Counted from the first letter of the stretch, positions 6,125 to 22,301 are shown. The stretch is DNA of 25,575 nt from Candidatus Altiarchaeota archaeon (GCA_043800705.1 JAZDMS010000008.1:1-25575), one strand, 5' to 3'. Notes: generated by a model from the letters alone, not told the origin. Translations and numbers: made by a program.

Positions 6125-9100
6125 ATGGACCTGATCGGGGGAGTTAAAAGGGGATTGTTGGAGAGACAGGCGGAATATAACTTCTCAAGCAGCAACTATG
6201 AGGCCGCCGCAGAAGAATACGAGCGCCTCCTGAAGATTGTCGAGGGGGCAAAGGATGCGGACCGGGTCATGGCCATCGAAGAGAGGCTCGGCGACTGCTA
6301 TGAGAAGTTCAACCACCAGTCGCATGAGGAACGGATCAAAGACCATAAAAAAGCCTGCGAACACTACCTGAAGGCCGCTGACAAGCACCGCAACAGGGGG
6401 GAATACGAGAAGGCGGGGCTTCTCTTCGAAAAGAGCGCCAAAGCCTTCGAGGAATTCGACGCCAACAAGGAGGCCGGCGACTTCTACAAGCAATCTGCCA
6501 CGATGTTCTCCAAGGTGGGGGACTATGTCAACGCGAGCTACGCCTACCATTCCGCAGCGGAAAGATACGAGATGGAGGGGGAAAACGCGAAGGCTGCGTC
6601 AACATACCAGGAATCGGCACTCTCAGACATGCGGGTCAAGGACAACACCAGCGCGAGCGACAGCTTCAAAAAAGCCGCAGCCAGCTTCGAGAAGATAAGG
6701 GAATGGGACAAGGCCATAGACTCCTACGCAAGCTCAGTAGGGATAGACACGATGAGCAGAAGATTCCTCGAAGTCGCGGACACCTACGAGAAGATGGCGA
6801 ACGTATTCTACGAGATGAACGACCAGGAGAAGGCCGTATACTACCACCTAAAATCCGCCGACCTCAGGTTGGTGAACGACGACCCCAGGAGCGCAGCCAA
6901 CTGCATGCGCGAAGCCGGCACCGTCTACGAACACGGCGGGGACTACGATAAAGCCATAGAATACTACCTGAAGTCGGCAAAGACATTCTTCAACTCCAAC
7001 ACGCCCGCCCAGGAGGCGTTCTCCTATTCCAAGGCGGCGAGTATATACGAGATGAGGGGGGAATACGAAGCCTCGGGCAACTACTACCTGGAAGCGGCGA
7101 AATCAAACAAGGCAGGACAGAACGACTCCCAAGCAAAAGACACCTACATGAAGGCAGCCCAGATGTTCAGCAAAGCCTCCGAGAAAAATGACCAGGACAG
7201 GATGAAGGCCGCCGATTTCCACCTGAAGGCAGCCTCGTCCTATAGCGAAATAGAGGAATACGACAAGGCTGCGGACGAATACAACAGCTACGCCAACATC
7301 TTCCACGAGGCCAAAGACATAGACAATGCCAACGAGGGGTACAACAGGGCTGCACAGGAATACGTGAAAGGGGGCAGGATTTGGGAGGCTGCTGAGGCGT
7401 ACACCAACAGAAAGGACTATGAAAAGGCGGCGGAACTCTACGACAAATACGCCAACTCAAAGATTGAATCAAGAGACAACTTCGGGGCTGGCTTAGGCTT
7501 CATGGAGGGTGGAAACTGCCAAAGGAGGCTGAAAATCGACAGCAGTGCAAAGGCTAAATTCGACCGCGCAGCCTCATACTTCGCAAAATTTATCGAAGAG
7601 GCGAAGAACAAGGACCAGACGAGCGAACACACCCTCCTTCTCGCAGATGCATACAGGAAGATAGGGGAATGCAATGAAGGCCAAAACGAACTGATACTCG
7701 CGAAGCAGCACTACGAGAAGGCCGAGGAATACTACGACAGGGCCGGCGACAAGGAAAAGCGAGAGCTGACCATGGGACTGAGGCTCAAGGTGGATGGCAT
7801 CAAAGCCATCGACCACGGCTACTACCCCAAGGCCGAGGAGCTGCTAACCCAGTCAAAGGAAATCCTCCAGGCCAATGCAAAAAACGGAACGTGGAAGACA
7901 GAGTACTCGAGGATACTCCAGGACGGGGCGGACGAAGCACTGCAACTGATAGAGAAGATCATGCTGAAGCCCGAGATAATCCTCGACATAGACAGGTATA
8001 CGTACACGTTCGCAGACATGCCGGTGATGCTGAACGTCAAGCTCACAAACGACGGGAAATACACGATGAAGCAGATAACTTTCCTCGAACACCTCCCGGA
8101 AGAGATCAAGCTCATGAAGCTGCCGGACAGCATCCCCGAACTCAAGCCCACCAACTCCAAGAACACATACATAGAACTGACGCCGAAGAAGACCGGCCTC
8201 TTCAGGGTGAAGCCCATCGAGATATACTACGAGGACCAGAAAGCGCACAAATACGTGAAGGCAAGCAATGAAGTCGCCTTGGAAGTCGTTGAAAAGCCCC
8301 TCACGGACTTCAAGAACTACATCAACTCCGTAGAAATATTCCACAGATACGCCCAATCGCAGGAGAACAACAATAACTGGTTCCAGGCAGGCGACGGATA
8401 CATGCAGATGGCGAGGATATACAGCAGGTTCAGAAGCGACGAGACCCGGACGGGATACTACAAAAAAGCCGTCGAAAACTACAAAAAATACTTCGAAGAG
8501 AACAAAAACGACGAAGAAAAGGAGGACAATACCCTGGCAAAACGCCTCGGCGACTCATACTGGCACACCGGCGAAGGGCTCATGGACATCGGCCAGCTGG
8601 ACGACGCAATAAGGGCGTATGACGACTCGAGGAGGGTATACACAAAATGCGGGATTGAAAACCTCGCCTACCGCTCAAGCGCCCTAAAACTCAAGGTCGA
8701 AGGCATAGAGGCCGTCAAACGCGGGGATTACACGACCGCTCAGGGCAAGTTCAACGAGGCGCTCGCCTTCTTCAACGACGTCATCAGAAGCGGCGGATTC
8801 GACGAAGAGATGCTCAGGTTCCTGGAGAAGAACGAAGACGACGTGAAGAGCATGATTAAGACCCTACAGCTCAAACCCCAGATAAGCGTAAACATCACAT
8901 GCCCCGAGAAGGTGACTGTGGGTTTGCCGGTCACCCTGAATGCCAGCATATACAACAGCCTCGACTTCACGGTAAAGTCCGTCAAGCCGATGCCAAATAT
9001 AATCGAGGGCGTAGAGGTCGCCGAGACCACGACAGACATCAAGGAGATCAAGCCGCAGGAGAACGCGAACGCTACCTTCAAGCTCGTATTCACGAGGCCT

Positions 9101-10201
9101 GGAGCCTACAGATTCACCCCCATGGACGTCAGCTACTCGGACGACACCGGTAAATCGTTCATAAAGGAGGGCAACGAAGTCACCCTGACAGCTGAAGTTT
9201 CCAAGAGCCCGAAGAAAGAGGGGAAGAGAACCCCAGCATCCGCCAAGGAAGCGTACGACGACGGGGCCCCGACGATCACATTGGACTTTGGAGGCCTAAT
9301 CAACACCGCCCCCGGCCAGGAGACATCAGTCAAGGGGAATCTGTCTAACGTGGGCACCGTAGACGTGAGAAACATCAGGTTCATCGGGAGCTCAGGGCCG
9401 GTCATCGAATTGATTGAGACGCCCCAGGAGGTCGAAACCCTGCAGGCGGGCAAAAAAACAGAAGTCGAAATCAGGTTCCGGGCAGTAAAGGAAGGGGTCC
9501 ACACCGTCAAATTGCTAGGATTCTCCTACAAGGACCTGAAAGGCAGCCACTTCTTCAAGAGCGCAAACGAGACGGCGGTGAAGGTGACATCGACGGCCAA
9601 GGAAGACGAGAAGATAGCGCAGGATGCGAAGGCCCAAGAAGACGTGAAAGACCTGCTGGAGGCCGGACTAGCCCAAGCGGATGAGAGGATGGTAGAGCTC
9701 ATATCCACGAAAGCGGACAACCACGCCCAGGCAATCCTGACCGTCCTTGAGATACTTGTCAACAAGAGGGGCATGGGCGGGGTCTATATAAGCGTCAGCC
9801 AGCCATCCGAGTCGATAGCCAACGCCATGAAGGAAGCAGGCATCCCGGATGGTAATGTGAGGTTCATAGACTGCATCAGCCGCTCGGCAGGGAGAGGACA
9901 GACCCAGAAGACGGACAACACGGCGTACATCGAGAACCCAAGCAGCCTAGAAGAGGTTACGATGTACATCGACCTTATGCTTAAGGCTGTCCAGAAGCCT
10001 AAAAAATTCATCGTCTTGGATTCCATATCGAGCCTCCTGATCTATAATCCCGACAAGAGCGTGAGGGAATTCACACATTTCGTGATAAACAAGGTCAAGC
10101 TCGAGAAGAACACCGGCATAATACTGAGCATAGAGAAGAAGGAGGCTGAAGACCTCATCAAGACCATTGCCCCGATGTGCGACGCACATATACGGCTATG
10201 A
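6125..10201 (+). CDS. Large multidomain protein: alpha-SNAP/TPR-like solenoid, three Ig-like (CARDB/BatD-like) domains and a C-terminal inactive KaiC/RecA-like domain
   Basis: 20-aa periodic A..Y.KAA..F...G repeats; three P.I.L...N.G.....I...P..I.EL.P...G...P....Y.D..G Ig-type units; C-terminal GVYIS...FIDCIS...FIVLDSISSLLIYN with no Walker A; no signal peptide. Confidence 0.85.
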   Translation: MDLIGGVKRGLLERQAEYNFSSSNYEAAAEEYERLLKIVEGAKDADRVMAIEERLGDCYEKFNHQSHEERIKDHKKACEHYLKAADKHRNRGEYEKAGLLFEKSAKAFEEFDANKEAGDFYKQSATMFSKVGDYVNASYAYHSAAERYEMEGENAKAASTYQESALSDMRVKDNTSASDSFKKAAASFEKIREWDKAIDSYASSVGIDTMSRRFLEVADTYEKMANVFYEMNDQEKAVYYHLKSADLRLVNDDPRSAANCMREAGTVYEHGGDYDKAIEYYLKSAKTFFNSNTPAQEAFSYSKAASIYEMRGEYEASGNYYLEAAKSNKAGQNDSQAKDTYMKAAQMFSKASEKNDQDRMKAADFHLKAASSYSEIEEYDKAADEYNSYANIFHEAKDIDNANEGYNRAAQEYVKGGRIWEAAEAYTNRKDYEKAAELYDKYANSKIESRDNFGAGLGFMEGGNCQRRLKIDSSAKAKFDRAASYFAKFIEEAKNKDQTSEHTLLLADAYRKIGECNEGQNELILAKQHYEKAEEYYDRAGDKEKRELTMGLRLKVDGIKAIDHGYYPKAEELLTQSKEILQANAKNGTWKTEYSRILQDGADEALQLIEKIMLKPEIILDIDRYTYTFADMPVMLNVKLTNDGKYTMKQITFLEHLPEEIKLMKLPDSIPELKPTNSKNTYIELTPKKTGLFRVKPIEIYYEDQKAHKYVKASNEVALEVVEKPLTDFKNYINSVEIFHRYAQSQENNNNWFQAGDGYMQMARIYSRFRSDETRTGYYKKAVENYKKYFEENKNDEEKEDNTLAKRLGDSYWHTGEGLMDIGQLDDAIRAYDDSRRVYTKCGIENLAYRSSALKLKVEGIEAVKRGDYTTAQGKFNEALAFFNDVIRSGGFDEEMLRFLEKNEDDVKSMIKTLQLKPQISVNITCPEKVTVGLPVTLNASIYNSLDFTVKSVKPMPNIIEGVEVAETTTDIKEIKPQENANATFKLVFTRPGAYRFTPMDVSYSDDTGKSFIKEGNEVTLTAEVSKSPKKEGKRTPASAKEAYDDGAPTITLDFGGLINTAPGQETSVKGNLSNVGTVDVRNIRFIGSSGPVIELIETPQEVETLQAGKKTEVEIRFRAVKEGVHTVKLLGFSYKDLKGSHFFKSANETAVKVTSTAKEDEKIAQDAKAQEDVKDLLEAGLAQADERMVELISTKADNHAQAILTVLEILVNKRGMGGVYISVSQPSESIANAMKEAGIPDGNVRFIDCISRSAGRGQTQKTDNTAYIENPSSLEEVTMYIDLMLKAVQKPKKFIVLDSISSLLIYNPDKSVREFTHFVINKVKLEKNTGIILSIEKKEAEDLIKTIAPMCDAHIRL

Positions 10202-10253
10202 CCCGCCGACAAGCCTTTAAACCAGTGAAACAAATACATAACAGGTCGATAAT

Positions 10254-11198
10254 ATGGTTGAGAGGGACAAGGATATCTTCCAGCAATTCCGCCAGCTGAC
10301 GGATGAAATACATAAGCAGGTCATAGGCAACGACGAGGTCATCGAGAACATCCTCATCGGCATCTTCTCGGGAGGCAACGTCCTCCTAGAGAGCGTTCCG
10401 GGAATGGGAAAGACGGTACTCATAAAGACCATCGCAGACACCATGGATATGGAGTTCAAAAGGATCCAGTGCACACCAGACCTTACAGCCACAGACATAA
10501 TGGGAAGGATCGTATACGACGAGAAAACTGGCCAAAAGACCATGGAAAAAGGCCCGGTATTCACCAACCTCCTCCTGATCGACGAGATAAACAGGGCGCA
10601 GCCGAAGACGCAGTCCGCGCTCCTTCAGGCGATGGAGGAGAAGGAGGTCACCCTCGGCGGAACGACCTACAGACTCCCGCAACCCTTCACGGTCCTGGCC
10701 ACCGAAAACCCCATCGACCAGCAGGGGACGTTCCCACTCCCTGAAGCCCAGAAGGACAGGTTCATGTTCATGTCCGTGATGCAGTACCTCTCCCTTGAGG
10801 AGGAGATGCAGATCATAAAAGCCAAGCAGAAGGACGCCAAGGTGAACAAGATATTCAATCCGCCGGAGATCCTGATCATCAGGGAGGAGATCAAGAGCAA
10901 CATAACCATGTCGGACTCGATACTTGAATACGCCATCAAAATCATCGAGGGAACACGTGAACGCAGGGAGGTCGCCACGGGGGCAAGCCCCAGAGCCTCG
11001 GTCTCGTTCGTGACCGCCGCGAAGACGAGGGCCTTCTTCAGGGGCCGCGACTTCGTCAATGCTGAAGACGTCAAAACGCTGTCGTTCCCGCTCCTTAGGC
11101 ACAGGATAATACTCAACCCCGACTCGAAGGACTACGGAGTCACCCCGGACGATATAATATCGAAGGTCCTGGAGAAGGTGGAATCGCCGGTGGATTGA
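10254..11198 (+). CDS. moxR: MoxR family AAA+ ATPase
   Basis: LLESVPGMGKT (Walker A), RIQCTPDL, LLIDEINRAQPKTQSALLQAMEE, ATENP..QQGTFPLPEAQKDRF, GASPRA and LRHRI. Confidence 0.96.
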   Translation: MVERDKDIFQQFRQLTDEIHKQVIGNDEVIENILIGIFSGGNVLLESVPGMGKTVLIKTIADTMDMEFKRIQCTPDLTATDIMGRIVYDEKTGQKTMEKGPVFTNLLLIDEINRAQPKTQSALLQAMEEKEVTLGGTTYRLPQPFTVLATENPIDQQGTFPLPEAQKDRFMFMSVMQYLSLEEEMQIIKAKQKDAKVNKIFNPPEILIIREEIKSNITMSDSILEYAIKIIEGTRERREVATGASPRASVSFVTAAKTRAFFRGRDFVNAEDVKTLSFPLLRHRIILNPDSKDYGVTPDDIISKVLEKVESPVD

Positions 11199-11203
11199 AA
11201 AAA

Positions 11204-13654
11204 ATGAGAAAGACGACCATAATTGCCCTGACCCTGATACTGGCGCAGACCATGGTCTCTGCAGAAAGCCTTAAGATGAACCTCGAAACCAGATGGGCAT
11301 ACAACACGAATGTCGACGTGGGCGCCATAGCCGTGGCAGACGGCACAGGAAACGGCAGAAAGGATGTCGTAATCGGATTGTCGAACGACACAGTGGTAGT
11401 CCTTGACCGTTTCGGGGTAAAAAAATACGAATACGCCATAGGAAACGCCTCACAGATAGGAAGCATATATGCCATGGATGCCGCAGACGTCGACGGCGAC
11501 GGCAAAGAGGAAGTGATATTCGGCCTCGGCGGGGCGCGGGAAGTCAGAGTCTATGAAGCCCACGCCTACGAGGTGGACCCAAAGAGCATGACAATCGAGT
11601 CGAAGGACAAGGTGCTCTACAGGCTGATAAAGAACCACGGCAGCGTATACGTGATGAAAACAGACGGGAGCCTGTTGTGGAGGTACCTCACCGACGACAG
11701 CGTCAGGGCGGTCGCCTACGTCCCCAACGCCGGGGGCAAGGCATACGTCACCGCGGGAGTGGGCGACGTGACCATATACGAGTACAACCAGAGAAGCAGT
11801 GAACCGATACCCGGCAGATCATGCATAACAACTACGATCACGGACGAAAACGCCCAGTGGGCGACCTCAAGCGACTGCTATTCCAAGGCATGCGAGGACC
11901 TGAACGAATGCACTGCCGAATGGGATTTAAGCTGCCTGGATACGAGATGCAAAAAGATGGGTTCCAACTGCTACAGGAACACATCCGACATTAAGACCTT
12001 ATGCTCTAGCGGGACGCAGGACGTCTGCCTGATAAGCTACGACAAGATCGTCTGCGGCGAGAACCTCGTCGACAAGGAGGGCTGGAGGATATCCACAGAA
12101 AAGACAATGAACGGCAGCGTCGTCTTCCTGGACAGGAGCGGAAAATACGTGACCAAATACGACGTCGTCCTTAGGTTGGATGATGGAATGGAGGTCCCCG
12201 GCGCAGACAACGCAGTCAGGAAGGTCAAAGCGGCAGACCTGACAGGCGACAGGGAAGACGAGCTGATAGTGGGCTCGAACAACGGCCAGATCATGGCCCT
12301 GAACATCACCAATATCAGCGCCATCCGTTACTTGTGGAAGGCAGCAGGCGAATACATCAAGACCAACGGGACTGGGATCGCAACCTGGGAGCACGGAGTC
12401 GGGATAGTCAGCCTTGGCGCGGCAGACCTCAACAACGACAAGGAGCCGGAGATCACATCCGGCAACAGCAAAGGCCTTCTGGCCACATACGACAGCAAAG
12501 GAAAGCTGCAATGGAAGCAGAGAATCAGCGATGCGATAACTGGGATCGATGCCCAGGACATACAGATCGACCAGCAAAAGGACCTGATCGTGTCCTCCAG
12601 GGACCGGACATTGTATGTCTATGACTCCCTCGGCAACATCCAATGGACATATATGACCAACGCACCCCTGTACGGCGTCCTGGCCACGGACATCGATGAA
12701 AACGACCTTGCGGACTTCATCATCCGCACCACGCGAAACGTCACGAGACTTGAGACCAACGATTACTACATAAAAAAATACAGGGCAGACGCATACTTCA
12801 ACACAGCCAACGAAAACTACCTCGCAGGGGATTACACGACAGCAAGCATCTACGTGGACAAGGCAACGGAGGTCTACAAGGATATCGGAGCCCAAGACGA
12901 CCTTGCCCTGAGCAGCGCATTGAGGAAAAAGATAGACGAGGAGTTCAAGGGATCGAGGATCAAGGAGGGAGACCGCCTCTACAACCTCGCGGTAAAATAC
13001 TATTCGATGAACGATTTCCAGACGGTCATAAAAAACCTCGAACAGGCCAGGAACCTCTACCAATCCATCGGATACGAGGAGGGAGTCAAAAAATGCGACA
13101 AGATGGCTGAGACCATGAGGGAAGAGCTCAAAAGGGTGCGCGAATACGACGCGGAAAGCAGGCTTTCCATGGCGGAAACGCTCCTGAGCTTCGGCAACTA
13201 TACCGGAGCCGTCGAACTCATCTACCAGGCTAAACAGATTTACCAGGAAATTGGGGAATACAACGAGACGGCAAGATGCGACATGCTCGTCCTGAAGGTT
13301 GCGGACACACAGTACACGGGCGCCCAGACGGCCTACGAGAGAGGGGATTACCCCAAAGCTATCGAGTACGCACTTGCCGCAAAGGAGCTCTATGACAGGG
13401 TCGGGGCCTACAACATGTCGATATTTGCGCAGGAGCTTATGCAAAAAGCCAATTCATCGGCCTACGACGACGGATCCCGGAGGGGGGAGACTGATTACAC
13501 ACCCTACCTCCTTGGCGCGATATTCCTTGCGATAATCGTCATATTATACATGCGTTCCGGGGGGCAGAAGATCCGGGAGGAAAAACCTGTGAGGGAGGAT
13601 AGAAACGCCGGAACTGACGATGAACTCGAGGGCTTGGAAGGGGCTGATAGATGA
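11204..13654 (+). CDS. Membrane-anchored surface protein: FG-GAP/PQQ-type beta-propeller, TPR stalk and C-terminal TM helix
   Basis: Signal peptide; DxDGDGxxE-like loops (DVDGDGKEE, DLTGDREDE, DLNNDKEPE, DIDENDLAD); G..LW blades; TPR helices; TM YLLGAIFLAIIVILYM; many N-x-S/T sequons. Confidence 0.85.
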   Translation: MRKTTIIALTLILAQTMVSAESLKMNLETRWAYNTNVDVGAIAVADGTGNGRKDVVIGLSNDTVVVLDRFGVKKYEYAIGNASQIGSIYAMDAADVDGDGKEEVIFGLGGAREVRVYEAHAYEVDPKSMTIESKDKVLYRLIKNHGSVYVMKTDGSLLWRYLTDDSVRAVAYVPNAGGKAYVTAGVGDVTIYEYNQRSSEPIPGRSCITTTITDENAQWATSSDCYSKACEDLNECTAEWDLSCLDTRCKKMGSNCYRNTSDIKTLCSSGTQDVCLISYDKIVCGENLVDKEGWRISTEKTMNGSVVFLDRSGKYVTKYDVVLRLDDGMEVPGADNAVRKVKAADLTGDREDELIVGSNNGQIMALNITNISAIRYLWKAAGEYIKTNGTGIATWEHGVGIVSLGAADLNNDKEPEITSGNSKGLLATYDSKGKLQWKQRISDAITGIDAQDIQIDQQKDLIVSSRDRTLYVYDSLGNIQWTYMTNAPLYGVLATDIDENDLADFIIRTTRNVTRLETNDYYIKKYRADAYFNTANENYLAGDYTTASIYVDKATEVYKDIGAQDDLALSSALRKKIDEEFKGSRIKEGDRLYNLAVKYYSMNDFQTVIKNLEQARNLYQSIGYEEGVKKCDKMAETMREELKRVREYDAESRLSMAETLLSFGNYTGAVELIYQAKQIYQEIGEYNETARCDMLVLKVADTQYTGAQTAYERGDYPKAIEYALAAKELYDRVGAYNMSIFAQELMQKANSSAYDDGSRRGETDYTPYLLGAIFLAIIVILYMRSGGQKIREEKPVREDRNAGTDDELEGLEGADR

Positions 13655-14202
13655 AAACCAGGACGGTGCTCATAGGAAACACGAAATTGGTGTTTGGAGT
13701 AATCATACTGATCGCCATATTGGCCGTCTTCGACACCCGTTTCAGGACCGGCGTAACATTCATAATCCTGATCCTGCTGACAATCATCGCAGTTATCAGC
13801 TCCACGAACAAAGACGCCGAATGGAGCATCGAAAGGAGAAACAAAGGCGAAAAGGGCGCATTGACCCTCGACGGCAAGGAGAAGAAATACCTGATATTCT
13901 ACATACTAAACCAGCTTCGGAAGAGGGAAACGATGGAGATGACCGAGATAGCCACCGAACTGAACATCAGCATCTACGATCTGACGGAGGTCCTCAAGCT
14001 TCTGGACAAACACAAGGCGGTCGAGGTCATCTATTCCCCGCCGCACAACTTCCCCATAATCCGCAGAGGCAACCAGGATAAGAGTAAGGCCTACATGATG
14101 TCGATATACAAGGAGTTCGCAAAACGGAGCCTGATGGGGGGGGAGATGATGGATGAGTTTGCAGTGGAGGTAAACGACTATATCCACAACATGAGGAGGT
14201 AA
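13651..14202 (+). CDS. Membrane protein (2 N-terminal TM helices) with a cytoplasmic winged-helix domain
   Basis: Two TM segments, then LRKRETMEMTEIATELNISIYDLTEVLKLLDKHKAVEV; ATGA overlap with the upstream gene. Confidence 0.75.
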   Translation: MKTRTVLIGNTKLVFGVIILIAILAVFDTRFRTGVTFIILILLTIIAVISSTNKDAEWSIERRNKGEKGALTLDGKEKKYLIFYILNQLRKRETMEMTEIATELNISIYDLTEVLKLLDKHKAVEVIYSPPHNFPIIRRGNQDKSKAYMMSIYKEFAKRSLMGGEMMDEFAVEVNDYIHNMRR

Positions 14203-14224
14203 GGATTCGGATTACCAGCGCACG

Positions 14225-14959
14225 ATGACATCAGCAAAACAACGAAAAAGAGGAGAATGCACAGGCACGCCCAGAAAGATAGGCCGCTTCATAGGGACTG
14301 CCATTAGCTGCCTCGCAATTGTCTTCGCATTATCTGGACTGCCCTGCGCCCAATCCCTCCGCCTCGACATAGGCAACGACACAGGCTACGAATGGTCCGC
14401 CCCGATTGCATTCACCGGCCCCCAGAGGCTGTCCATAGCCAGCGACGTAAACAGGTATGTTGCAGGCTGCTGGTGCATAGGATGCATTTATGATTTCGTG
14501 TCAGGAAATTGCACGGTCCCCCTTGTCTTCAGATCAGACGTCTCAGGAAACTTCACGATAGACGACATCAGACTGACATTCGAAAGCGACGCCAACCTCG
14601 GCGAAGTAGGTTACGGAAGCCCGTTTCGCAAAAGCGAGGGAGGATGCTGGGAGATCGAAGGACCGAGCGGAATATTCATGGTGCCCATCCCGTCGGACTA
14701 TGACGGGGGCTCCTGTTCCGCTGCAGAATACTCGTATACACGGGCCGCCAACGCAAGAGCAGTCACCGACGATGCCGTAGTCGATGCCACCTACAGGCTC
14801 CTAAACGAATCACTGGACACCCAACCAAGCCATGGGAGACTGGATGGCGCCGACGGCTTCGCCGGCGATCCGGCGGCCATGTCATTCAGGACGGAGGGCA
14901 GAATCGGGGTCCAGAGCCTCTGGGGCCCCGTGAGGATGAGGTTGGTCGTATGGGGCTAG
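14225..14959 (+). CDS. Secreted Cys-containing protein, probable T4P accessory component
   Basis: Hydrophobic signal segment, CWCIGC...CTVP motif and C-terminal WGPVRMRLVVW; overlaps the downstream pilin-like gene. Confidence 0.65.
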   Translation: MTSAKQRKRGECTGTPRKIGRFIGTAISCLAIVFALSGLPCAQSLRLDIGNDTGYEWSAPIAFTGPQRLSIASDVNRYVAGCWCIGCIYDFVSGNCTVPLVFRSDVSGNFTIDDIRLTFESDANLGEVGYGSPFRKSEGGCWEIEGPSGIFMVPIPSDYDGGSCSAAEYSYTRAANARAVTDDAVVDATYRLLNESLDTQPSHGRLDGADGFAGDPAAMSFRTEGRIGVQSLWGPVRMRLVVWG

Positions 14960-16293
14960 GTGGAAGAGGTTACATGTTCACCCTGGTGGCTGCCCTGATG
15001 ATCATGACCATCCTATCGATGGCCCTGTTTCAGACGCAGATATCCTCCCCCGCCTACGAGGACACCACCAGCAGGATGAGCCTCGACGAGCTCCATTACT
15101 ACGTTGAAGCCCTAAAGAAGGACACAGAAAGGGCGATAGCGATCTCGAGCCAGCGTGCTGCGACATATGCCACCAACCATGCCATAAACACCAATGAGAC
15201 ATTCAGGAATTACGGGATGAAAAACTGCACGCAGTTCACATACTATACCAACGGTTCCGAGGCCGCCATAGCCGAACTCATGGTGTGCGGCAGACTCGCC
15301 AACGCAAAAATGGACGCCCAGGACGTGGAAAAATATATGGAAGACAACACGGTCGAAGGCTGGATGCAGAAGATCTATACGAATCCGCCGGGCGAGGTGC
15401 CGTACAATGTCAGCATGAGGCTGAGGAACATGTCGATGGCCTTGTATGATTCCTGGCATTACATCATTTTCAGCGATGTCGATATCACTGTCGTGGACGA
15501 ATCTAACAACAACCGCTACAGCGGACAGGGGATCCCCATCTCTTCCGTCGTCGACTTCAGCTCTGCGGAGGACCCCATGTATTCCGTCAGATTCGGGATA
15601 CCGCAGGCAATAAGGCAGTACAATAGATGCGAAATGAGGCGTCCCGTGAACGGAACGACGCTGGACGGATGGATAGATGAAGGCTGCTACAATTCCGTGA
15701 AGCCCGACTACAACGCCCCCTCCTTCTTCGACAGGCTCGAGGGGAGGAACAACCTAAGCACGGCGTCGCTTTCCAGGTATTCGAACGCCCTGAAGAGCCT
15801 CAACTACAGCCTCACCGATATCGGACTCGAGAGCATGGCCAACCTCGACCTCCTGGACAGGTACAACGTAACTGTGAACTACAACCTCACACAAGTGGAT
15901 TACCTCTATTGGAGCGGACAGAGAAGCGCATGCTCCGTTGAGGGCATGAGCGCACACCCAAACTTCAGGATCGACTTCGACCATGCGAGGGAGTACGGCA
16001 TAGAGGGATTGAACTGCGAGGTATACGTCAAGCAAGCCACTGCTGGAAGCGATTTCGACTACTTCGAGCCGACAAGGATAGACAACCTGCCTGCCGGGAC
16101 GAAGCTGACCTGGGTCGAGGCCACTGGGACTATAACCCATACGCTCCATTGGAATTCGAAGACCGGGCAGGGTGAGGGCGTGCTCGAACCAAGCAGCAGG
16201 TTGACCTGGCTTTTCAACCAGACAGGGGAGTATGTGGTCACTTCCACGCCGTCCACTGGCTCATATGGGGTATTCTACCTACAAGTAACATAG
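14950..16293 (+). CDS. Large minor pilin / pilin-like adhesin with a class III signal peptide and a C-terminal cupredoxin-like domain
   Basis: GRG|YMFTLVAALMIMTILSMALF; internal APSFFDRLEG...GLES...VDYLYW; C-terminal FEP...AGTKLTW...HTL...LEP...F...GEY. Confidence 0.75.
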   Translation: MGLGGRGYMFTLVAALMIMTILSMALFQTQISSPAYEDTTSRMSLDELHYYVEALKKDTERAIAISSQRAATYATNHAINTNETFRNYGMKNCTQFTYYTNGSEAAIAELMVCGRLANAKMDAQDVEKYMEDNTVEGWMQKIYTNPPGEVPYNVSMRLRNMSMALYDSWHYIIFSDVDITVVDESNNNRYSGQGIPISSVVDFSSAEDPMYSVRFGIPQAIRQYNRCEMRRPVNGTTLDGWIDEGCYNSVKPDYNAPSFFDRLEGRNNLSTASLSRYSNALKSLNYSLTDIGLESMANLDLLDRYNVTVNYNLTQVDYLYWSGQRSACSVEGMSAHPNFRIDFDHAREYGIEGLNCEVYVKQATAGSDFDYFEPTRIDNLPAGTKLTWVEATGTITHTLHWNSKTGQGEGVLEPSSRLTWLFNQTGEYVVTSTPSTGSYGVFYLQVT

Positions 16294-16536
16294 GTAAATT
16301 TAAATATGTAGATATTAAGTATTCCAACCACAAATAATATTTACAGATGTAAATACATAAATTTGAATATCAAACCAACTGAACATATAGTCAGATAGAT
16401 ATTCGTAGATATGAATACTTTAAGATAGATAAGATCTATTTAGTAGAATGTAAATATATAAATATTTGTGCCAGAAATGGTTAAATAACTAACTTAGAGG
16501 GTATTTATTGCCCAAAGAACATAATCATTTGATACT
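16294..16536. promoter_or_regulatory. AT-rich control region upstream of the pilus ATPase operon
   Basis: ~25% GC counted over 16321-16500; palindrome TATTTACA-GA-TGTAAATA (16338-16355); TAGATA copies; TATA-like elements. Confidence 0.6.
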
Positions 16537-18471
16537 ATGGCAGAGCCCGCAAAGAATCCTTCGACAACACAGCCTATTGAATTCACTGGCCAGAAGAAAC
16601 GCCTCCTGGATCGAATAAACGAGTCGGGAAGACTAACCCTGTCGGCTGCCACCGAAAACCTAAACCTCGACAAGACGATGACAATAAGGCTGGCAGAGGA
16701 ACTCTCCTGCGCCAACGCCATAAAGATCGAAGCCCACTACCTCAGGGAACCCGAATTCGAGTCCATCAACTACAAAGACATGAAGAATGAGGTCACCACC
16801 GGCACGGAAACGAAGGTTATCGAGATGCACACGCCGAAGACCACAAACTCGCGGGGCGTAATGACGGCCCCAAAAGAGACAGTCCTGCAGGCGAAGAGCC
16901 AAGAGGAACAGGACGCCGAGAAATTCCAGCAAAAAGCAAACCAACTACTCAAGGATATAATAAAACCCGAATCCGAAAGGGAGCAGAAACTCATAGACAA
17001 GTACGTACTCACCTCGGAAGACGTGCACTTCGAAGTGAAGATAATGGACACCGGCGACTTCGTCCCCCACTACCTCATCACCATGCCGAAAATCGACTTC
17101 GTCACGAGGGCACTCCTGGACGAAACCAAGCGGTCGCTAATCGGTGAGGTGAAGATCGAGACAAAGGACATCTTCGACACCAGCAAATTCACGAAACTCA
17201 GGGCGAAATTCCAAACCCGTGCAAAAGACAAGCTCAGGAACGTCCTGAAAAAATCCTCCGACGAATACGTCTCGACCCTTGCGAAGCTGCTCGTCAACGA
17301 GATGCTCGGCCTCGGAGACATGGAATACCTCCTCCTAGACGACAAGATCGAGGAGATAGTCGTAAACTCCAGCAGGGAACCGGTCTGGTGCTACCACAAA
17401 GGCAAGGGATGGATGAAAACCAACATCATCCTCCCCACCGAAGACATAATATCGAACTACGCCTCAAGGGTCGCAAGGGAGGTCGGCAGGGAGATAACCC
17501 ACCTGACGCCCCTCCTGGACGCCCACCTATCGACGGGAGACAGGGTAAACGCCACCCTGTTCCCGATATCCACCGCCGGAAACACCATGACCATAAGGCG
17601 GTTCTCGAGGACGCCCTGGAGCGCCATCCACCTCCTAGAGCCCAAGACAAGGACCCTCAACTCAGAGATTGCCGCATTCATATGGCTTGCGATAGAGTTC
17701 GAAAGCAGCATTGTCATCGCTGGCGGAACCGCATCCGGAAAGACTAGCATGCTGAACGCCGTCATGCCGTTCATGCCCGCAAACCAGAGGATAATCAGCA
17801 TCGAGGACACGAGGGAACTGAACCTCCCCGAATTCCTCCACTGGCTGCCCATGACCACAAGGCCCTCCAACCCCGAAGGCGACGGGGGCATAACCATGCT
17901 CAACCTGCTCCAGAACTCCCTGCGTATGCGCCCGGACAGGATCATCGTCGGAGAAGTCCGCGCCAAGCAGGAGGCGGAAGTCCTTTTCGAGGCCATGCAC
18001 ACCGGCCACAGCGTCTACGCCACATTCCACGCCGAAAGGGCCCAGGAGGTGGTGGACAGGATCACTAGCCCGCCTATGAGCATACCTGCGACAGTATTGA
18101 AATCGCTACACCTGATCATCATCCAGTACAGGAACAGGAGGACCGGCCAAAGAAGGTGCTTCGAGATCTGCGAGATAATCAAGGACGAATCAGAGCAGCC
18201 GACGCTCAACACGCTCTACAAATGGGAGCCAAGGACCGACTCCATAAACAGGATGTACCCAAGCATCAGGATAAAGGACGAACTGGCGCTTTTCACGGGA
18301 ATGTCCGAAAAGGAGATAGAGGAGAACATAAGCGACAAAAAGGCGATCCTGGAATGGATGCTTGCAGCCGGAATAAAAGACGTCAACAGTGTCGGAAGGA
18401 TCATAACCGAATATTACCTGGATAAATCCAAGATAATAAACATGGCGAAGAATAAAGGCACGTTAAAATAA
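16537..18471 (+). CDS. Type IV pilus assembly ATPase (archaeal PilB/ArlI; CpaF/TadA/VirB11-like) with an N-terminal wHTH extension
   Basis: GGTASGKTS (Walker A), ISIEDTREL (Asp box), LRMRPDRIIVGEVR (Walker B) and AMHTGH..ATFHA (His box). Confidence 0.96.
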   Translation: MAEPAKNPSTTQPIEFTGQKKRLLDRINESGRLTLSAATENLNLDKTMTIRLAEELSCANAIKIEAHYLREPEFESINYKDMKNEVTTGTETKVIEMHTPKTTNSRGVMTAPKETVLQAKSQEEQDAEKFQQKANQLLKDIIKPESEREQKLIDKYVLTSEDVHFEVKIMDTGDFVPHYLITMPKIDFVTRALLDETKRSLIGEVKIETKDIFDTSKFTKLRAKFQTRAKDKLRNVLKKSSDEYVSTLAKLLVNEMLGLGDMEYLLLDDKIEEIVVNSSREPVWCYHKGKGWMKTNIILPTEDIISNYASRVAREVGREITHLTPLLDAHLSTGDRVNATLFPISTAGNTMTIRRFSRTPWSAIHLLEPKTRTLNSEIAAFIWLAIEFESSIVIAGGTASGKTSMLNAVMPFMPANQRIISIEDTRELNLPEFLHWLPMTTRPSNPEGDGGITMLNLLQNSLRMRPDRIIVGEVRAKQEAEVLFEAMHTGHSVYATFHAERAQEVVDRITSPPMSIPATVLKSLHLIIIQYRNRRTGQRRCFEICEIIKDESEQPTLNTLYKWEPRTDSINRMYPSIRIKDELALFTGMSEKEIEENISDKKAILEWMLAAGIKDVNSVGRIITEYYLDKSKIINMAKNKGTLK

Positions 18472-18472
18472 A

Positions 18473-19339
18473 ATGCCATCAATGTTCGAATCCCCGATGG
18501 TGCTCAAGATGGCGGAACCGCTCGTAGAATACTCCAGCCACCTCGAGCCGCTCTTCCCCCACCTCGAATGGAACCTCAAACGTTCGGGATACGCCGTGGA
18601 GAGCGCCCAATACATCTCCGTCGTCCTGTACATGAGCGTGGTCGTCTTCTCCCTTGGCTTCTTCGTGGTCATCATCCCCTCAATCTACACTAATAGGTTG
18701 GAGGGAAGCTATGCAGCCATACTGTTTACCCTAATCGCGACGGTCCTGGCCATAGTATACATGCTCCTCATCCCGACGGTGAAGATGAACCGCAGGGGGC
18801 TGATGATAGACTACGACCTGGAGTTCATGCTCAAGGACATGCAGATTCAGCTATCCGCAGGAGTCCCCCTCTTCGACACGTTGGTCAACGTCGCCCGCGG
18901 GGAATACGGAGAATGCTCGAGGATATGCGAGGGCATAATACAGGAGGTCGAACAGGGCAAGTCGATAACCGACGTATTAGACGACGTCGGCATGTGGTCC
19001 CCCTCCGAATACTTCAGGAAAGCGCTCTGGCAGATAGTCAACGCGCTAAAATCAGGAAGCGACGTCTCAGATGCGCTGGAGGCCATATCGAACGACATAC
19101 GCCTCGAAAAGGAGAACAAGATCAAAGCCTACGGAAGGGAACTCAACCTCTACGGCCTCATATACCTCATGTGCGCCGTGATACTGCCGTCCATGGGGGT
19201 CACCCTACTAGTCATACTGTCCAGCTTCCTAGGCAAGGGAATCATAAACGAGACGACCTTCTACATCATCCTGTTCATTCTAATAGTGGGACAGACCATG
19301 TTCATAATGTTCGTGAAAAGCAAGAGGCCGACGATATGA
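18473..19339 (+). CDS. Type II secretion system F-family membrane platform protein (PilC/TadC/ArlJ-like)
   Basis: 2 TM, then LSAGVPLFDTL...YGE...SPSEYFRKALWQIVNALKSGSD, then C-terminal TMs; starts 1 bp after the ATPase stop. Confidence 0.92.
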   Translation: MPSMFESPMVLKMAEPLVEYSSHLEPLFPHLEWNLKRSGYAVESAQYISVVLYMSVVVFSLGFFVVIIPSIYTNRLEGSYAAILFTLIATVLAIVYMLLIPTVKMNRRGLMIDYDLEFMLKDMQIQLSAGVPLFDTLVNVARGEYGECSRICEGIIQEVEQGKSITDVLDDVGMWSPSEYFRKALWQIVNALKSGSDVSDALEAISNDIRLEKENKIKAYGRELNLYGLIYLMCAVILPSMGVTLLVILSSFLGKGIINETTFYIILFILIVGQTMFIMFVKSKRPTI

Positions 19340-19352
19340 AAAACGGCCTCTG

Positions 19353-19372
19353 CAAAAGGACGTTTATAAGAT
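19353..19372 (+). promoter_or_regulatory. Putative BRE/TATA promoter for the second platform gene
   Basis: AAAAGGACG-TTTATAAG at 19354-19370; the same GTTTATAAG occurs upstream of pilin 1. Confidence 0.45.
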
Positions 19373-19412
19373 ACAACGCAATCTTCGCATATGTTGTTGT
19401 GGGCCGTTTTGC

Positions 19413-20597
19413 ATGCATAAAATGGGTGAAAAAAACAGGTTAACCGGGGCGGGGGCTAGCGTGTTCGGGACATTAAGCGCCCTATCAACGCTTTTGTCGG
19501 ACGCCGCCATTGCCGCGGTAAAACTGGTGCTCTGGGCAGTCAACTACGTCCTCATAATCATCATACAGCTTTTTAAGACCTTTCAAAGTATCATCAAAAG
19601 GGTGATGAAGTTCATCCCGAAGATAGTCGCCAATTTCATGCCGAATAAGACGAGCAACAACATGAACCAGCAGCTTATCTACGCCGGAGTCGAAATGACC
19701 GCCGAGGAGGTGGTCGGCATCACTGTCGTATATAGCATCGTTGTGACGACCATTGCATACCTCACGTCGATCACCCTGAACGTGACACCCGCCACAACCA
19801 TGGTTGCGGTGGTAACCGCCTTTGGCCTCGTCTGGGTGCTCCCGTTCATAATAATTGGCATACTGATCACCAACAGGACGGACACCGTCGAAGAGACGCT
19901 GCCGGACGTCATGAGCATGGTGGCCCAGAACATGAAGGCGGGGATGACGTCCTACAACGCCCTGTGGAGCGCGGCACGCCCCGAGTTCGGCACCCTGGCG
20001 ATCGAGATACAGGATGTCGCCAAGGCCACGCTCACAGGCGTCCCACTGACCGACGCCCTGATAGGCATGACGAACCACGTGAGATCCAACAAGCTGCAGC
20101 GAAGCGTCCACCTCATAGTCCAGGGCATGAAATCCGGCGGAGACCTTCCCGCGGTTCTTCACGCAATAACCACCGACATGAGGAGGGAATATAACCTCAG
20201 GAAGCAGATGGCCGCCGAGACGAGCGCCCACTCCATATTCATCCTTTTCGCCATCATGATAGGGGCTCCGCTTCTGTTCTCGGTTTCGTTCCAGTTCGTC
20301 AGCATATTCTCGAACATGATGTTGAAGCTGAACGTCGCAGAGCTTGCCAAGAACGCCCCCCAGTCCGTGATCAGCATAAGCCCCCTCGCGATTACCCAGG
20401 ACTTCTTCCTCTACTACGCGATCGCGATACTGGCGATTTCGGGGTTCTTCGGAGCGCTCCTGGTCGGGACCTTGAAAAGCGGCAATCCTGTTGACGGGAT
20501 AGCGAGCATACCGGGATTCGTGATCATCCCGATAGTGATCTTCTTCGTGATGAAATTCCTGCTTGGGATGCTGTTTTCGAGCATGATAACGTTCTAG
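19413..20597 (+). CDS. Second type II secretion system F-family membrane platform protein (PilC/TadB/C-like)
   Basis: VEETLPDVMSMVAQNMKAGMT...ARPEFGTLA...GMKSGGDL; multiple TMs; start may be 19413 or 19422. Confidence 0.92.
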   Translation: MHKMGEKNRLTGAGASVFGTLSALSTLLSDAAIAAVKLVLWAVNYVLIIIIQLFKTFQSIIKRVMKFIPKIVANFMPNKTSNNMNQQLIYAGVEMTAEEVVGITVVYSIVVTTIAYLTSITLNVTPATTMVAVVTAFGLVWVLPFIIIGILITNRTDTVEETLPDVMSMVAQNMKAGMTSYNALWSAARPEFGTLAIEIQDVAKATLTGVPLTDALIGMTNHVRSNKLQRSVHLIVQGMKSGGDLPAVLHAITTDMRREYNLRKQMAAETSAHSIFILFAIMIGAPLLFSVSFQFVSIFSNMMLKLNVAELAKNAPQSVISISPLAITQDFFLYYAIAILAISGFFGALLVGTLKSGNPVDGIASIPGFVIIPIVIFFVMKFLLGMLFSSMITF

Positions 20598-21325
20598 CCG
20601 GCCTTGGCTAGAATCAGCCTCGCCGCGGATTGGACGTTTTCGCAAGACAACGGCGGCTCCGTCTTTGCGCCCATTATGCCGGCACACAGGTCGTCTACGT
20701 CCACGACGTCCACGGTCGGATTGATGAGCTCCAATTCCGCGTCGGGGTTCGTGAACGCTAGGAATCCGAAGACCCATATGTGGGGGGCTTTCCCGCCGAA
20801 TACAGCCTCCTGATTCATGAGGATGAAGTCCTTCAGCACTTTGGCGTTCCGCTTCACCTGGTTGCTGGGGCTTCCGATCTCCATTTTCTGGGACACCCCC
20901 CTGATGACCTTCGTCTTCTTCCATGTGTCGCCGTCGCAGGATATGCGCCCCCCGTAGTTCTTCGACTCGATGACGAAGAAGCCGCTTGGGCCGATTACTA
21001 TATGATCCGTGTCGCCCCGGTTCGGCGGCACGACGACGCCATTCAACAGGACATACGAGTCGGGAAGGCCCTTCAGAGCCTCGGTGACGGCCCGTTCACC
21101 GGCCGAACCCCCCTGCCACGCCAGGTAGCTGGAGTAGGAGTAAGCCCCGAGAGCATACGTCAACGGTATGATCAATAGGCCGATGCTGGAATACGGGAAG
21201 ACGTTCTGGGCGAAGAGTAGGATGGCGGACATCATCAGTGCGAGGAACAGCACGATCCGCCCCCTGACCAGCTGGATGTTCCGCCACACATACATCGTCT
21301 GGCCGTATCCGTTCAGCATCCTCAT
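20594..21325 (-). CDS. Membrane-anchored NERD (nuclease-related domain, PD-(D/E)xK) protein
   Basis: Two N-terminal TMs; GSAGERAV..AL..LP, GDTDHIVIGPSGFFVIESKNYGG and SPSNQVKRNA. Confidence 0.9.
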   Translation of the reverse strand: MRMLNGYGQTMYVWRNIQLVRGRIVLFLALMMSAILLFAQNVFPYSSIGLLIIPLTYALGAYSYSSYLAWQGGSAGERAVTEALKGLPDSYVLLNGVVVPPNRGDTDHIVIGPSGFFVIESKNYGGRISCDGDTWKKTKVIRGVSQKMEIGSPSNQVKRNAKVLKDFILMNQEAVFGGKAPHIWVFGFLAFTNPDAELELINPTVDVVDVDDLCAGIMGAKTEPPLSCENVQSAARLILAKAG

Positions 21326-21383: not shown

Positions 21384-21452
21384 TATTTATAGGTTTATAA
21401 GCATTCCGGAGTAATAAAATAACAGCCATTTTAGGGCTATTTGAGGTGAAAA
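21384..21452 (+). promoter_or_regulatory. TATA box and ribosome-binding site of pilin 1
   Basis: TTTATAAG at 21394-21401; SD-like GAGGTGA at 21443-21449 before ATG 21455. Confidence 0.6.
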
Positions 21453-21454
21453 AC

Positions 21455-21997
21455 ATGTTTAGGAAAATGAGTAAGGGTCAGGGTGCCATGGAGTACTTGA
21501 TGACCTATGGATGGGCTATCCTAGTGGTTATGATAGTGGGGATAGTAATGTGGCAGCTTGGTATTTTCAACATAAACCAAGGCTCTACGACGGCGACAGG
21601 GTTCGCGAAGATAAAGCCGCAGCTGGCCGGTTCCAGTTTCACCGGCGCTACTCGTGCGACGAACTTCGTCTTCACGAACGGAGCCGGAGGGACCATCAGG
21701 GTACAGTCAGTAGCCATCGAAGACTTGGTCAATCCAGCAGGAGGAACAGCGGGGATATGCACAGGAGCATTATCAATACTGTCTAACAATGCTAGGCTGA
21801 TCGACGGAAACGCTGATGCGACGTCAGTAGTTGTCTCGCAGGGTGAGAACCTGAGGATCCAAGACACGCTCTGTATGGCAGCCGGAACAGTCGGCGAAAC
21901 CTACAACGCAAGGATCAGGATAAACTACGTGATCACCGTCGTAGGCCAGAGATCGACACACACCGAAACAGGCACGCTAAGGGGCCCAGTCGAATAG
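21455..21997 (+). CDS. Archaeal type IV pilin 1 (class III signal peptide), probable major pilin
   Basis: SKG|QGAMEYLMTYGWAILVVMIVGIVMWQLGIF (Q+1, E+5); strong SD, own promoter and terminator; start moved to ATG 21455. Confidence 0.9.
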   Translation: MFRKMSKGQGAMEYLMTYGWAILVVMIVGIVMWQLGIFNINQGSTTATGFAKIKPQLAGSSFTGATRATNFVFTNGAGGTIRVQSVAIEDLVNPAGGTAGICTGALSILSNNARLIDGNADATSVVVSQGENLRIQDTLCMAAGTVGETYNARIRINYVITVVGQRSTHTETGTLRGPVE

Positions 21998-22301
21998 ATC
22001 GACTCCCCTTAATTTTTTCTTTTTTTTAATCACCCCTCAGCTAAGGCTCCGCGTGAGGGACCGGTTTTAACGCCCCAAATCAATAAACTTATGCCCCAAA
22101 GGGACATATGAGGTAAAAAGAATGATCAGCAAAGTGAGTAGAGGCCAGGGTGCCATGGAGTACCTGATGACCTACGGATGGGCCATCCTGGTCGTCATGG
22201 TAGTCGGCATAGTCATGTGGCAGCTTGGCATATTCAACCTTAACCAAGGCTCTACGACGGCGACAGGGTTCGCGAAGATAAAGCCGCAGCTGGCCGGTTC
22301 C
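21575..22301 (+). repeat. 60-bp exact direct repeat shared by pilin 1 (21575-21634) and pilin 2 (22242-22301)
   Basis: AACCAAGGCTCTACGACGGCGACAGGGTTCGCGAAGATAAAGCCGCAGCTGGCCGGTTCC occurs in both genes. Confidence 0.9.
21978..22027 (+). terminator. Hairpin plus oligo-T terminator after pilin 1
   Basis: TAAGGGG(CCC)AGTCGA-ATAGA-TCGACT-CCCCTTA stem spanning the stop codon, then TTTTTTCTTTTTTTT (22013-22027). Confidence 0.7.

Follow-up and report, generated by a model that had tools for sequence, protein, structure and literature searches.

The contig described here raises the question of whether a row of genes packed against a type IV pilus (T4P) machine is part of that machine. The window, by which we mean the whole stretch of DNA analysed (25,575 nucleotides, Candidatus Altiarchaeota archaeon, GCA_043800705.1 JAZDMS010000008.1:1-25575), is an entire 25.6-kb contig; the genome (2.0 Mb, 43 contigs) has an estimated completeness of 87.6%. 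Nine plus-strand genes occupy positions 6125-20597, encoding a giant scaffold protein (g1, hereafter the giant), a MoxR-type AAA+ ATPase (g2), an exported propeller protein (g3), a small membrane protein (g4), a secreted protein (g5), a pilin-like protein (g6), a PilB/FlaI-like ATPase (PilB) and two PilC/TadC-like platform proteins (PilC1 and PilC2). The original prediction, made from the sequence alone, treated all of these as one undescribed system. We find instead that the row is a composite of two separable modules, A (giant, MoxR, propeller/TPR protein and g4) and B (from g5 onwards), and not one machine: the giant-MoxR pair stands alone in the largest family of relatives, and the pilus locus occurs without module A.

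Two modules in one gene row

The gene content and domain calls of the original prediction were confirmed with Pfam, all genes lying on the plus strand at matching coordinates, and the tight, co-oriented packing of g1 to g6 was equally evident, with successive intergenic distances of 52, -4, -4, 22 and -10 bp. Between g6 and PilB lies an AT-rich spacer of 243 bp, followed by gaps of 1 bp (PilB/PilC1) and 73 bp (PilC1/PilC2).

Two sets of relatives were compared with this arrangement. The first consists of 61 genomes of the class, divided into families f1 to f9, of which f5 (22 genomes) is the largest and f9 (8 genomes) represents the sister order. The second consists of 80 PilB-clade loci from several DPANN phyla, which are the relatives found with PilB as a single-protein query. 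Labels beginning with G denote genomes (G000 being that of the window and the others relatives), L labels denote inspected loci and C labels denote contigs.

The two modules differ in distribution. Orthologues of PilB (E<=1e-100) are present in 56 of the 61 genomes, including all eight of f9 and none of the four in f8, and the core of module B recurs in 75-80 of the 80 related loci (PilC1 in 75, PilC2 in 75, pilins in 42, g6 in 22, g5 joined to a von Willebrand factor A (vWA) domain in 15, DUF7504 in 10). Matches to g6 (E<=1e-5) were found in 50 of the 61 genomes, and both g5 and g6 accompany PilB outside the order to which the window belongs. Module A, on the other hand, is confined to a single order of Altiarchaeota-like genomes.

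A giant scaffold and its MoxR partner

The giant begins with a TPR/SNAP-like solenoid (residues ~1-600), continues with an immunoglobulin (Ig)-like sandwich (618-722), a helical repeat (729-915) and two further Ig-like domains (920-1024 and 1051-1154), and ends in a KaiC/RecA-like DUF7504 domain without a P-loop (1160-1358). Pfam supports this layout with a SNAP/TPR match of 109 bits, Ig-like matches and a DUF7504 match of 34.6 bits (cut-off 27). An AlphaFold2 (AF2) model of residues 596-1160 (pLDDT 86.6) gives the order Ig, helical repeat, Ig, linker, Ig. A hydropathy analysis, here a simple scan for transmembrane (TM)-like segments, detected none in the giant or in MoxR.

Foldseek searches with the 565-residue middle part returned only generic Ig-type matches with TM-scores of at most 0.2 (axonemal central-apparatus proteins, transglutaminase C-terminal barrels and TRAPPII). 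A coat-like complex was considered and rejected, as the model matches to BBS2, BBS7, adaptin and TRAPPC13 fell mostly under their cut-offs and were read as generic propeller or beta-sandwich likeness.

MoxR carries intact motifs, with the P-loop PGMGKT read in the sequence and a Walker B motif, LLLIDE, at residue 106, and matches Pfam AAA_3 at 193.3 bits (cut-off 27) and AAA_lid_2 at 67.7 bits. The usual operon partner of a MoxR ATPase is an adjacent vWA or DUF58 gene. Neither is present here: the genome has seven VWA_2 matches, none of them on the window's contig, and no protein of the window matches a vWA model, while DUF58, with two matches in the genome, both on contig C16, is likewise missing from the window.

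Within the class, the giant (residues 1-1030, E<=1e-15) was detected in 45 of 61 genomes, with 18/20 in f1, 2/2 in f3, 1/1 in f4, 21/22 in f5, 1/1 in f7 and one weak match among the four genomes of f8; at the same threshold it was not found in f2 (0/1), f6 (0/1) or f9 (0/8). Orthologues and paralogues of MoxR taken together (E<=1e-60) occur in 56 of the 61 genomes, and orthologues with at least 54% identity are confined to giant-bearing families; in f2, f6, f8 and f9 the best match is at most 47% identical or missing. Of 20 fetched giant loci, 17 have MoxR as the next gene, and by coordinates the two lie within ~2 kb of each other in ~33 genomes and apart in G026, G031, G037 and G051. A profile of the first Ig domain, the most conserved part of the giant, retrieved 190 proteins at E<=1e-3 among 1.84 billion representatives. 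From the confinement of the close MoxR orthologues to giant-bearing families, the ~33 adjacencies and the 190 profile matches we conclude that the giant and the g2-type MoxR clade form a narrow and steady pair.

MoxR also scores above the cut-off of the Pfam model bpMoxR (38.7 bits against 27) and is followed by a propeller gene, which together would fit a conflict (defence) system of the MoxR-vWA-beta-propeller ternary kind. Such systems comprise a bpMoxR, a vWA protein and a cytoplasmic propeller protein. We rejected this explanation as highly improbable, since AAA_3 fits far better than bpMoxR, there is no vWA gene in the window, the propeller is exported and of FG-GAP type, and PADLOC reported nothing for g1 and g3-g6 and only 19-20 bits for MoxR. 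Moreover, the pair is a conserved single-copy feature of the order, unlike patchy defence islands.

Further MoxR genes were observed at other loci. A third MoxR of the window's genome (307 aa, 49% identical to g2) lies at L139 (G000:C14:48000-67999) between a TraG-like P-loop ATPase (1104 aa) and a T2SSE protein (584 aa) that is 29% identical to PilB, forming a second MoxR-T2SSE neighbourhood in this genome. In G026, which consists of a single contig, a MoxR paralogue 46-47% identical to g2 (L047:15292-16296) comes directly after PilB-PilC1 and is followed by TruD; the closer MoxR of that genome (54% identity) and its giant-like gene are located elsewhere.

Linkage between module A and the pilus locus

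In 11 genomes from three families, namely f1 (G000, G002-G006, G009, G015 and G016), f3 (G022) and f4 (G023), one contig carries both PilB and the giant or MoxR. It should be noted that this count is limited by contig ends, which intervene in many of the other genomes; in G017, for instance, the row extends from the giant through g5 and then meets the end of its contig. Identity of the giant and the propeller falls as low as 24-30% in the linked genomes, and the flanks of the block differ between families. In a PilB tree, in which the base of the order is unresolved, the linked lineages fall on four separate branches; the tree does not date the A-B adjacency.

We tentatively prefer, with a probability of roughly two in five, to regard module A as an accessory to the pilus, concerned with its assembly or regulation, because it is placed directly upstream of the putative minor-pilin genes in the window's clade and is probably transcribed together with g5 and g6. 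The giant TPR/Ig scaffold would act as an adaptor or client of a MoxR hexamer within an order-specific chaperone module that does without a vWA partner. Driven by ATP, MoxR would assemble or remodel a membrane complex coupling the surface propeller protein to the pilus base, and the KaiC-like domain of the scaffold, which lacks a P-loop, would dock to KaiC-type ATPases, which commonly accompany the T4P motors of archaea. Gene content, domain folds, the division into A and B, the pairing of the giant with MoxR and the repeated adjacency are observations; co-transcription, all physical contacts in this scheme and any effect on the pilus are what we infer from them.

Several observations weigh against an accessory role. 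Matches among the 80 PilB-clade loci are few for MoxR (3), the propeller (3) and g4 (1), and in the sister order PilB is found in 8/8 genomes and the giant in 0/8. Within f5, all 21 genomes that possess both a PilB orthologue and the giant or MoxR have them on separate contigs; eight giant loci inspected in this family are flanked by tRNA synthetases, RNase P subunits, peptidases and similar housekeeping genes, and six inspected pilus loci carry neither giant nor MoxR. G011, G014 and G026 also keep the giant/MoxR and the pilus genes apart. Where the modules do adjoin, the g4/g5 boundary is a place of insertions, with an opposite-strand Sm_multidrug_ex gene in G005 and G016 and two large genes in G022, and in the window itself the 243-bp spacer parts g6 from PilB. 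An arginyl-tRNA synthetase (ArgRS) gene lies upstream of the giant in the window and, judged by open reading frame size and strand only, probably also in G010 and G017, so that some of the synteny within the family may be simple descent. The cytoplasmic tail of g3 is reduced to 6-11 residues in two orthologues, one of which belongs to G023 with its full array. Lastly, KaiC-family matches occur in the fetched flanks of 18 of the 80 PilB-clade loci, which is not clearly above the genome-wide base rate. The expected linkage of the upstream genes to the same PilB clade thus holds in the 11 genomes of three families and fails in f5, in the sister order and in most of the 80 loci.

Standing alone in f5, G011, G014 and G026, and with unrelated genes breaking the A/B boundary, the giant-MoxR pair could also belong to an independent, Bat-like MoxR envelope complex, made up of a TPR/Ig scaffold, a MoxR ATPase and a TPR membrane protein, that is unrelated to pili and has become their neighbour by descent in one clade. 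We consider this a credible alternative, somewhat less probable than the accessory role. The Ig domains of f5 giants match BatD (51 and 39 bits; cut-off 24.1) and TRAP_beta; the giant of the window has no BatD match in Pfam at E<=0.01. The same genome also encodes a canonical DUF7502-MoxR-DUF58-BatA/vWA-vWA operon on another contig (L140, G000:C16:8000-20030), adjoined by a convergent gene for an 806-aa FG-GAP propeller paralogue of g3. Bat clusters, as described in PMC3557215, join MoxR with vWA, TPR and BatD membrane proteins and have no known role.

On the other side, adjacency to the same pilus locus is retained in three families though the flanks change, the packing with g5 and g6 is tight, and the KaiC-like domain together with the KaiC genes described below points toward T4P-type regulation. 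The giant-MoxR-propeller trio of G014 has a 161-aa gene behind it and, next to that, a prepilin peptidase (L036:9654-10673; Peptidase_A24, 34 bits), which also speaks for a pilus connection. As there is no DUF58 or vWA gene in the window, module A is not a canonical Bat cluster.

A KaiC-like pseudo-ATPase at the end of the giant

The last domain of the giant was modelled with AF2 over residues 1160-1358 (199 residues, pLDDT 87.8). In Foldseek its best match is PH0284 (E 7e-7, TM-score 0.63), followed by KaiC, PH0186 and FlaH (4yds, at rank 13), which identifies a RecA-superfamily fold. Profile matches are mixed: the DUF7504 model exceeds its cut-off, Pfam KaiC scores 24.4 bits on the protein (cut-off 26.6) and 28.8 bits in a six-frame search, and a profile search of the PDB retrieved KaiC at E 0.0035 only. 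A Walker A motif is missing from the expected position in 11 of 11 aligned DUF7504 domains, no GxxxxGK[ST] pattern occurs anywhere in the giant, and the NCBIfam model for ArlH reaches 16.4 bits against a cut-off of 215. On the strength of the missing Walker A and the low ArlH score, the domain is classified from its sequence as a KaiC-like pseudo-ATPase, which does not support the parallel with ArlH drawn in the original prediction.

A more general link between KaiC and T4P motors was supported, as KaiC-family genes recur at T4P ATPase loci. The window's genome has 27 KaiC-family matches and seven T2SSE loci, and a KaiC match lies within 2.5 kb of four of the seven (contigs C35, C24, C42 and C17); chance expectation is ~6%, as estimated from 27 matches in 2.0 Mb. 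In G009 a KaiC gene lies between the giant and MoxR, and in the pilus locus of the sister order a DUF7504 gene (28% identity to the C-terminus of the giant) and two KaiC-family genes lie between g6 and PilB. Because DUF7504 paralogues adjoin true KaiC ATPases, this pattern suggests that the last domain of the giant may dock to KaiC-type rings and not directly to PilB. A complex prediction that paired PilB (alignment of 15 rows) with the DUF7504 domain (alignment of 11 rows), run without controls, gave no support for a contact, with a score of 0.00 against a mark of 0.32, a result that weighs neither for nor against one.

The propeller protein and the small membrane protein

The g3 protein combines an FG-GAP beta-propeller with TPR repeats and a single membrane helix (Beta-prop_CGLA 71.8 bits, FG-GAP_3 33.8 bits and TPR_12 in Pfam). 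It has ten cysteines at residues 210-287, three DxDxD-type loops, a TM-like segment at 766-791 and a short acidic cytoplasmic tail of 34 residues. The signal-like N-terminal start and the tails were compared across 14 orthologues, seven of which carry an acidic [DE]ELExLE-type motif in the cytoplasmic tail.

These features bear on the proposal, contained in the original prediction, that the propeller senses a partner cell while the solenoid adaptor and MoxR retract or disassemble the pilus in place of a missing PilT. We consider it improbable. The window does contain a single T2SSE ATPase and, as had been noted, no dedicated retraction ATPase; g3 is exported and integrin-like; the acidic tail motif could serve as a handle for a TPR protein; and the SNAP-like repeats of the giant recall, by analogy, the adaptor-AAA+ logic of SNAP and NSF. 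However, in the sister order and throughout DPANN the same pilus clade does without module A, the tail of g3 is missing from some full arrays, and most archaeal T4P systems are not known to have a retraction ATPase. None of the results supports a role in pilus retraction or in partner-cell sensing.

Going further than the accessory role that we prefer, module A might be a trans-envelope coupling device found only in Altiarchaeales, in which the acidic tail of the propeller protein would relay surface contact to the scaffold, and the vWA-less MoxR together with the pseudo-KaiC domain would switch the pilus motor between assembly states. This remains speculative and, in our judgement, unlikely.

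The g4 protein, found in f1 loci only, was originally described as a winged-helix membrane protein. The membrane part is borne out by two N-terminal TM-like helices in the hydropathy scan. The winged helix, at residues ~75-183, is a lead only, as the Pfam RepL match is under its cut-off (18.4 bits) and the structural matches in the Atlas, all of them to MarR-type winged helices, have TM-scores below 0.5. A BLASTP comparison of g4 with the first 150 residues of PilB showed no similarity (E 1.7).

The type IV pilus locus

Module B, which comprises g5, g6, PilB, the split PilC, a NERD-domain protein, four pilins and a PMT-like glycosyltransferase, is a DPANN-type T4P locus (Table 1). The genes downstream of position 20597 (NERD protein, pilins and PMT_2 protein) belong to the same locus in relatives. 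The named relatives of PilB are from Candidatus Altiarchaeota and Altiarchaeales, and its more distant ones (42-52% identity) are from Aenigmat-, Micr-, Iain-, Woese- and Nanohalo-archaeota; the phrase "DPANN-type archaea" of the original prediction is therefore roughly right. Altiarchaeota are often counted with DPANN and are generally regarded as free-living.

Table 1. Positions of the genes and other features of the window, with the evidence for each.
Feature	Position	Strand	Basis
g1, giant cytoplasmic scaffold, 1358 aa	6125..10201	+	Pfam, hydropathy, AF2
g2, MoxR-type AAA+ ATPase (AAA_3 + AAA_lid_2)	10254..11198	+	Pfam, motifs
g3, exported FG-GAP beta-propeller with Cys-rich insert, then TPR and one C-terminal membrane helix	11195..13654	+	Pfam, hydropathy
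g4, small membrane protein, cytoplasmic winged-helix-like domain (lead only)	13651..14202	+	hydropathy, six-sequence alignment
g5, secreted Cys-rich protein	14225..14959	+	one N-terminal helix; Sec-type N-termini in orthologues
g6, pilin-like protein, class III-type N-terminus and large globular part	14950..16293	+	orthologue alignment, hydropathy
AT-rich spacer, 243 bp, with ATGTAAATA[CT]ATAAAT-like words	16294..16536	.	sequence
PilB/FlaI-like T2SSE ATPase	16537..18471	+	T2SSE 105.4 bits
PilC1, PilC/TadC-like platform, first half-size gene	18473..19339	+	T2SSF 60.7 bits
PilC2, PilC/TadC-like platform, second gene	19413..20597	+	T2SSF 46.3 bits
Membrane-anchored NERD-domain protein, between PilC2 and pilins	20594..21325	-	NERD 76.7 bits, TM-like segment 17-45
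d1, pilin paralogue, KG/QGAMEY class III-type start	21446..21997	+	sequence, one N-terminal hydrophobic helix
d2, pilin paralogue	22122..22661	+	sequence, hydropathy, relatives
PMT_2-type multi-pass glycosyltransferase, 605 aa, among pilin genes	22711..24528	-	PMT_2 28.8 bits
d4, pilin paralogue	24599..25159	+	sequence, hydropathy
d5, pilin paralogue, reaches contig end	25176..25574	+	sequence

The class III signal peptide is a motif of archaeal pilins. As originally described, the upstream row ends in a protein with a signal of this class: the start of g6, RG/YMFTL, follows a pattern, [RKN][RK]G-Y-[ILVF]-[YF]-T, kept in 13 of the 13 orthologues compared, the signal being predicted from sequence. 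The protein has one N-terminal TM-like segment and adjoins PilB across the class, and its structural look-alikes in the Atlas are unnamed DPANN proteins (TM-scores 0.56-0.64). The g5 protein has no Pfam family; in other lineages its domain forms the C-terminus of a pilin-like protein that bears vWA, as in L044, where the homologue starts MKQRG/FSLTLD and carries vWA. The conserved class III-type start of g6, and the position of the g5 domain at the end of a sister-order vWA protein of class III, identify both from their sequences as predicted pilus parts. All four pilin paralogues further downstream have predicted class III signals, with [KR]G/Q..(M/V)EY starts and one hydrophobic helix each, and homologues of d1 come after PilC2 in relatives. 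The prepilin peptidase is encoded outside the window, the sole Peptidase_A24 match of the genome lying on contig C37 (38.4 bits).

The spacer between g6 and PilB contains three of the AT-rich words given in Table 1, partly as inverted repeats, and is a possible internal promoter or operator before PilB. It could be an operator for the winged-helix-like g4, or the words could be due to chance in AT-rich DNA. The corresponding junction measures 137 bp, 43 bp or 31 bp or is overlapping in four relatives, so that the long spacer is particular to the window's genome. An Rfam scan of the window gave no match. Between positions 6001 and 14000, AT skew on the coding strand is 0.27-0.43 in 1-kb windows, with A well above T, at a GC content of 52-56%.

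PilB has a Walker A motif, GGTASGKT, at residue 396. Its extra N-terminal stretch of ~140 residues (16537-16960) has no Pfam match, and orthologues outside f1 mostly align from about residue 140. An archaellum was considered and rejected, with FlaI at 279 bits against an NCBIfam cut-off of 550, ArlJ at 23.9 against 400, and no other Arl matches.

In the sister order (L043, L044 and L045) the locus reads vWA-pilin with a g5-like end, g6-like, KaiC-like, DUF7504, a 106-aa gene, KaiC, a further gene, PilB, PilC1, a GyrA_C-type propeller and PilC2, and there is no giant, MoxR or FG-GAP gene at these loci. PilC2 carries an extra N-terminal fusion there, and the gene between the two PilC genes encodes a GyrA_C-type beta-propeller.

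Homologues of the NERD protein occupy the equivalent position in f1, f4 and f5 (e.g., L041, L048, L051, L053 and L035) and occur in 6 of the 80 loci; with a nuclease-like membrane protein encoded among pilus genes, one may ask whether DNA is taken up or processed there. A PMT_2 homologue beside a pilin is also found in a relative (L022:2993-4816, 32.5 bits). The PMT_2 protein may glycosylate the pilins, or else g3 and g6, which have 12 and 11 NxS/T sites, respectively.

Implications

Type IV pili are the main candidate attachment organelles in DPANN and related archaea, and their control is poorly known. The locus allows a pilus core with a wide distribution in DPANN (ATPase, split platform, pilin-like g6, and a g5 domain that is in many cases joined to a vWA pilin) to be told apart from an add-on specific to one lineage. 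The giant represents a rare protein family that is a steady partner of one MoxR clade without a vWA protein. Should the add-on act on the pilus, it would provide a concrete archaeal MoxR client and reveal the way in which KaiC-like pseudo-ATPases connect with T4P motors; otherwise, the giant-MoxR pair would still be an uncharacterised two-gene system of a whole order. The more elaborate coupling device, if true, would amount to adaptor-plus-AAA+ (SNAP/NSF-like) pilus control in archaea that lack PilT.

Comparison with known systems

A full-text search found no paper on DUF7504, and neither the giant scaffold nor the propeller partner was found in print, within those parts of the literature that were accessible; the supplementary tables of Makarova, Koonin and Albers (2016) may list related neighbourhoods. 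Matches to DPANN, type IV pili and vWA concern, according to titles and the first lines of abstracts, a bacterium of the candidate phyla radiation, and the hamus paper (PMC4460559) makes no mention of MoxR, ATPase or TPR.

The giant and MoxR resemble alpha-SNAP and NSF of eukaryotes in that a helical-hairpin adaptor, matched by Pfam SNAP, is encoded next to an AAA+ ATPase. They differ in that SNAP belongs to a TPR-like repeat class, so that generic TPR models match as well, and MoxR is not of the NSF/Cdc48 type; the likeness is an analogy only. ArlH (FlaH) binds the archaellum ATPase ArlI. The end of the giant shares with it a RecA/KaiC-like fold and a position upstream of a FlaI-like ATPase. 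Unlike ArlH, the domain lacks a Walker A motif, forms the end of a scaffold protein by fusion, is encoded 6.3 kb away from PilB, falls far short of the ArlH cut-off, and has paralogues whose partners are true KaiC ATPases and not T2SSE genes.

Bat clusters (PMC3557215) likewise bring together MoxR, TPR proteins and a partner that is exported or in the membrane, and the role proposed for them is the formation of large complexes at the membrane; BatD-type Ig domains in orthologous giants add to the resemblance. In contrast to these clusters, the window lacks DUF58 and the vWA proteins BatA and BatB, its TPR/Ig protein is cytoplasmic and giant, and the block is linked to a pilus locus in part of the order.

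Makarova, Koonin and Albers (2016; PMC4858521) described an association of KaiC ATPases, vWA proteins and MoxR/GvpN ATPases with archaeal T4P and also named transcription regulators at T4P loci; the terms TPR and propeller are absent from the text of that article. The window agrees with these T4P-associated regulators in having a KaiC-family domain and a MoxR-type ATPase beside a VirB11/TadC-type pilus locus, and its membrane-linked, winged-helix-like g4 would fit the transcription regulators of that paper. It departs from them in that MoxR has no vWA partner, the P-loop-less DUF7504 domain is fused to a 1358-aa TPR/Ig protein, and an exported FG-GAP/TPR protein joins the row.

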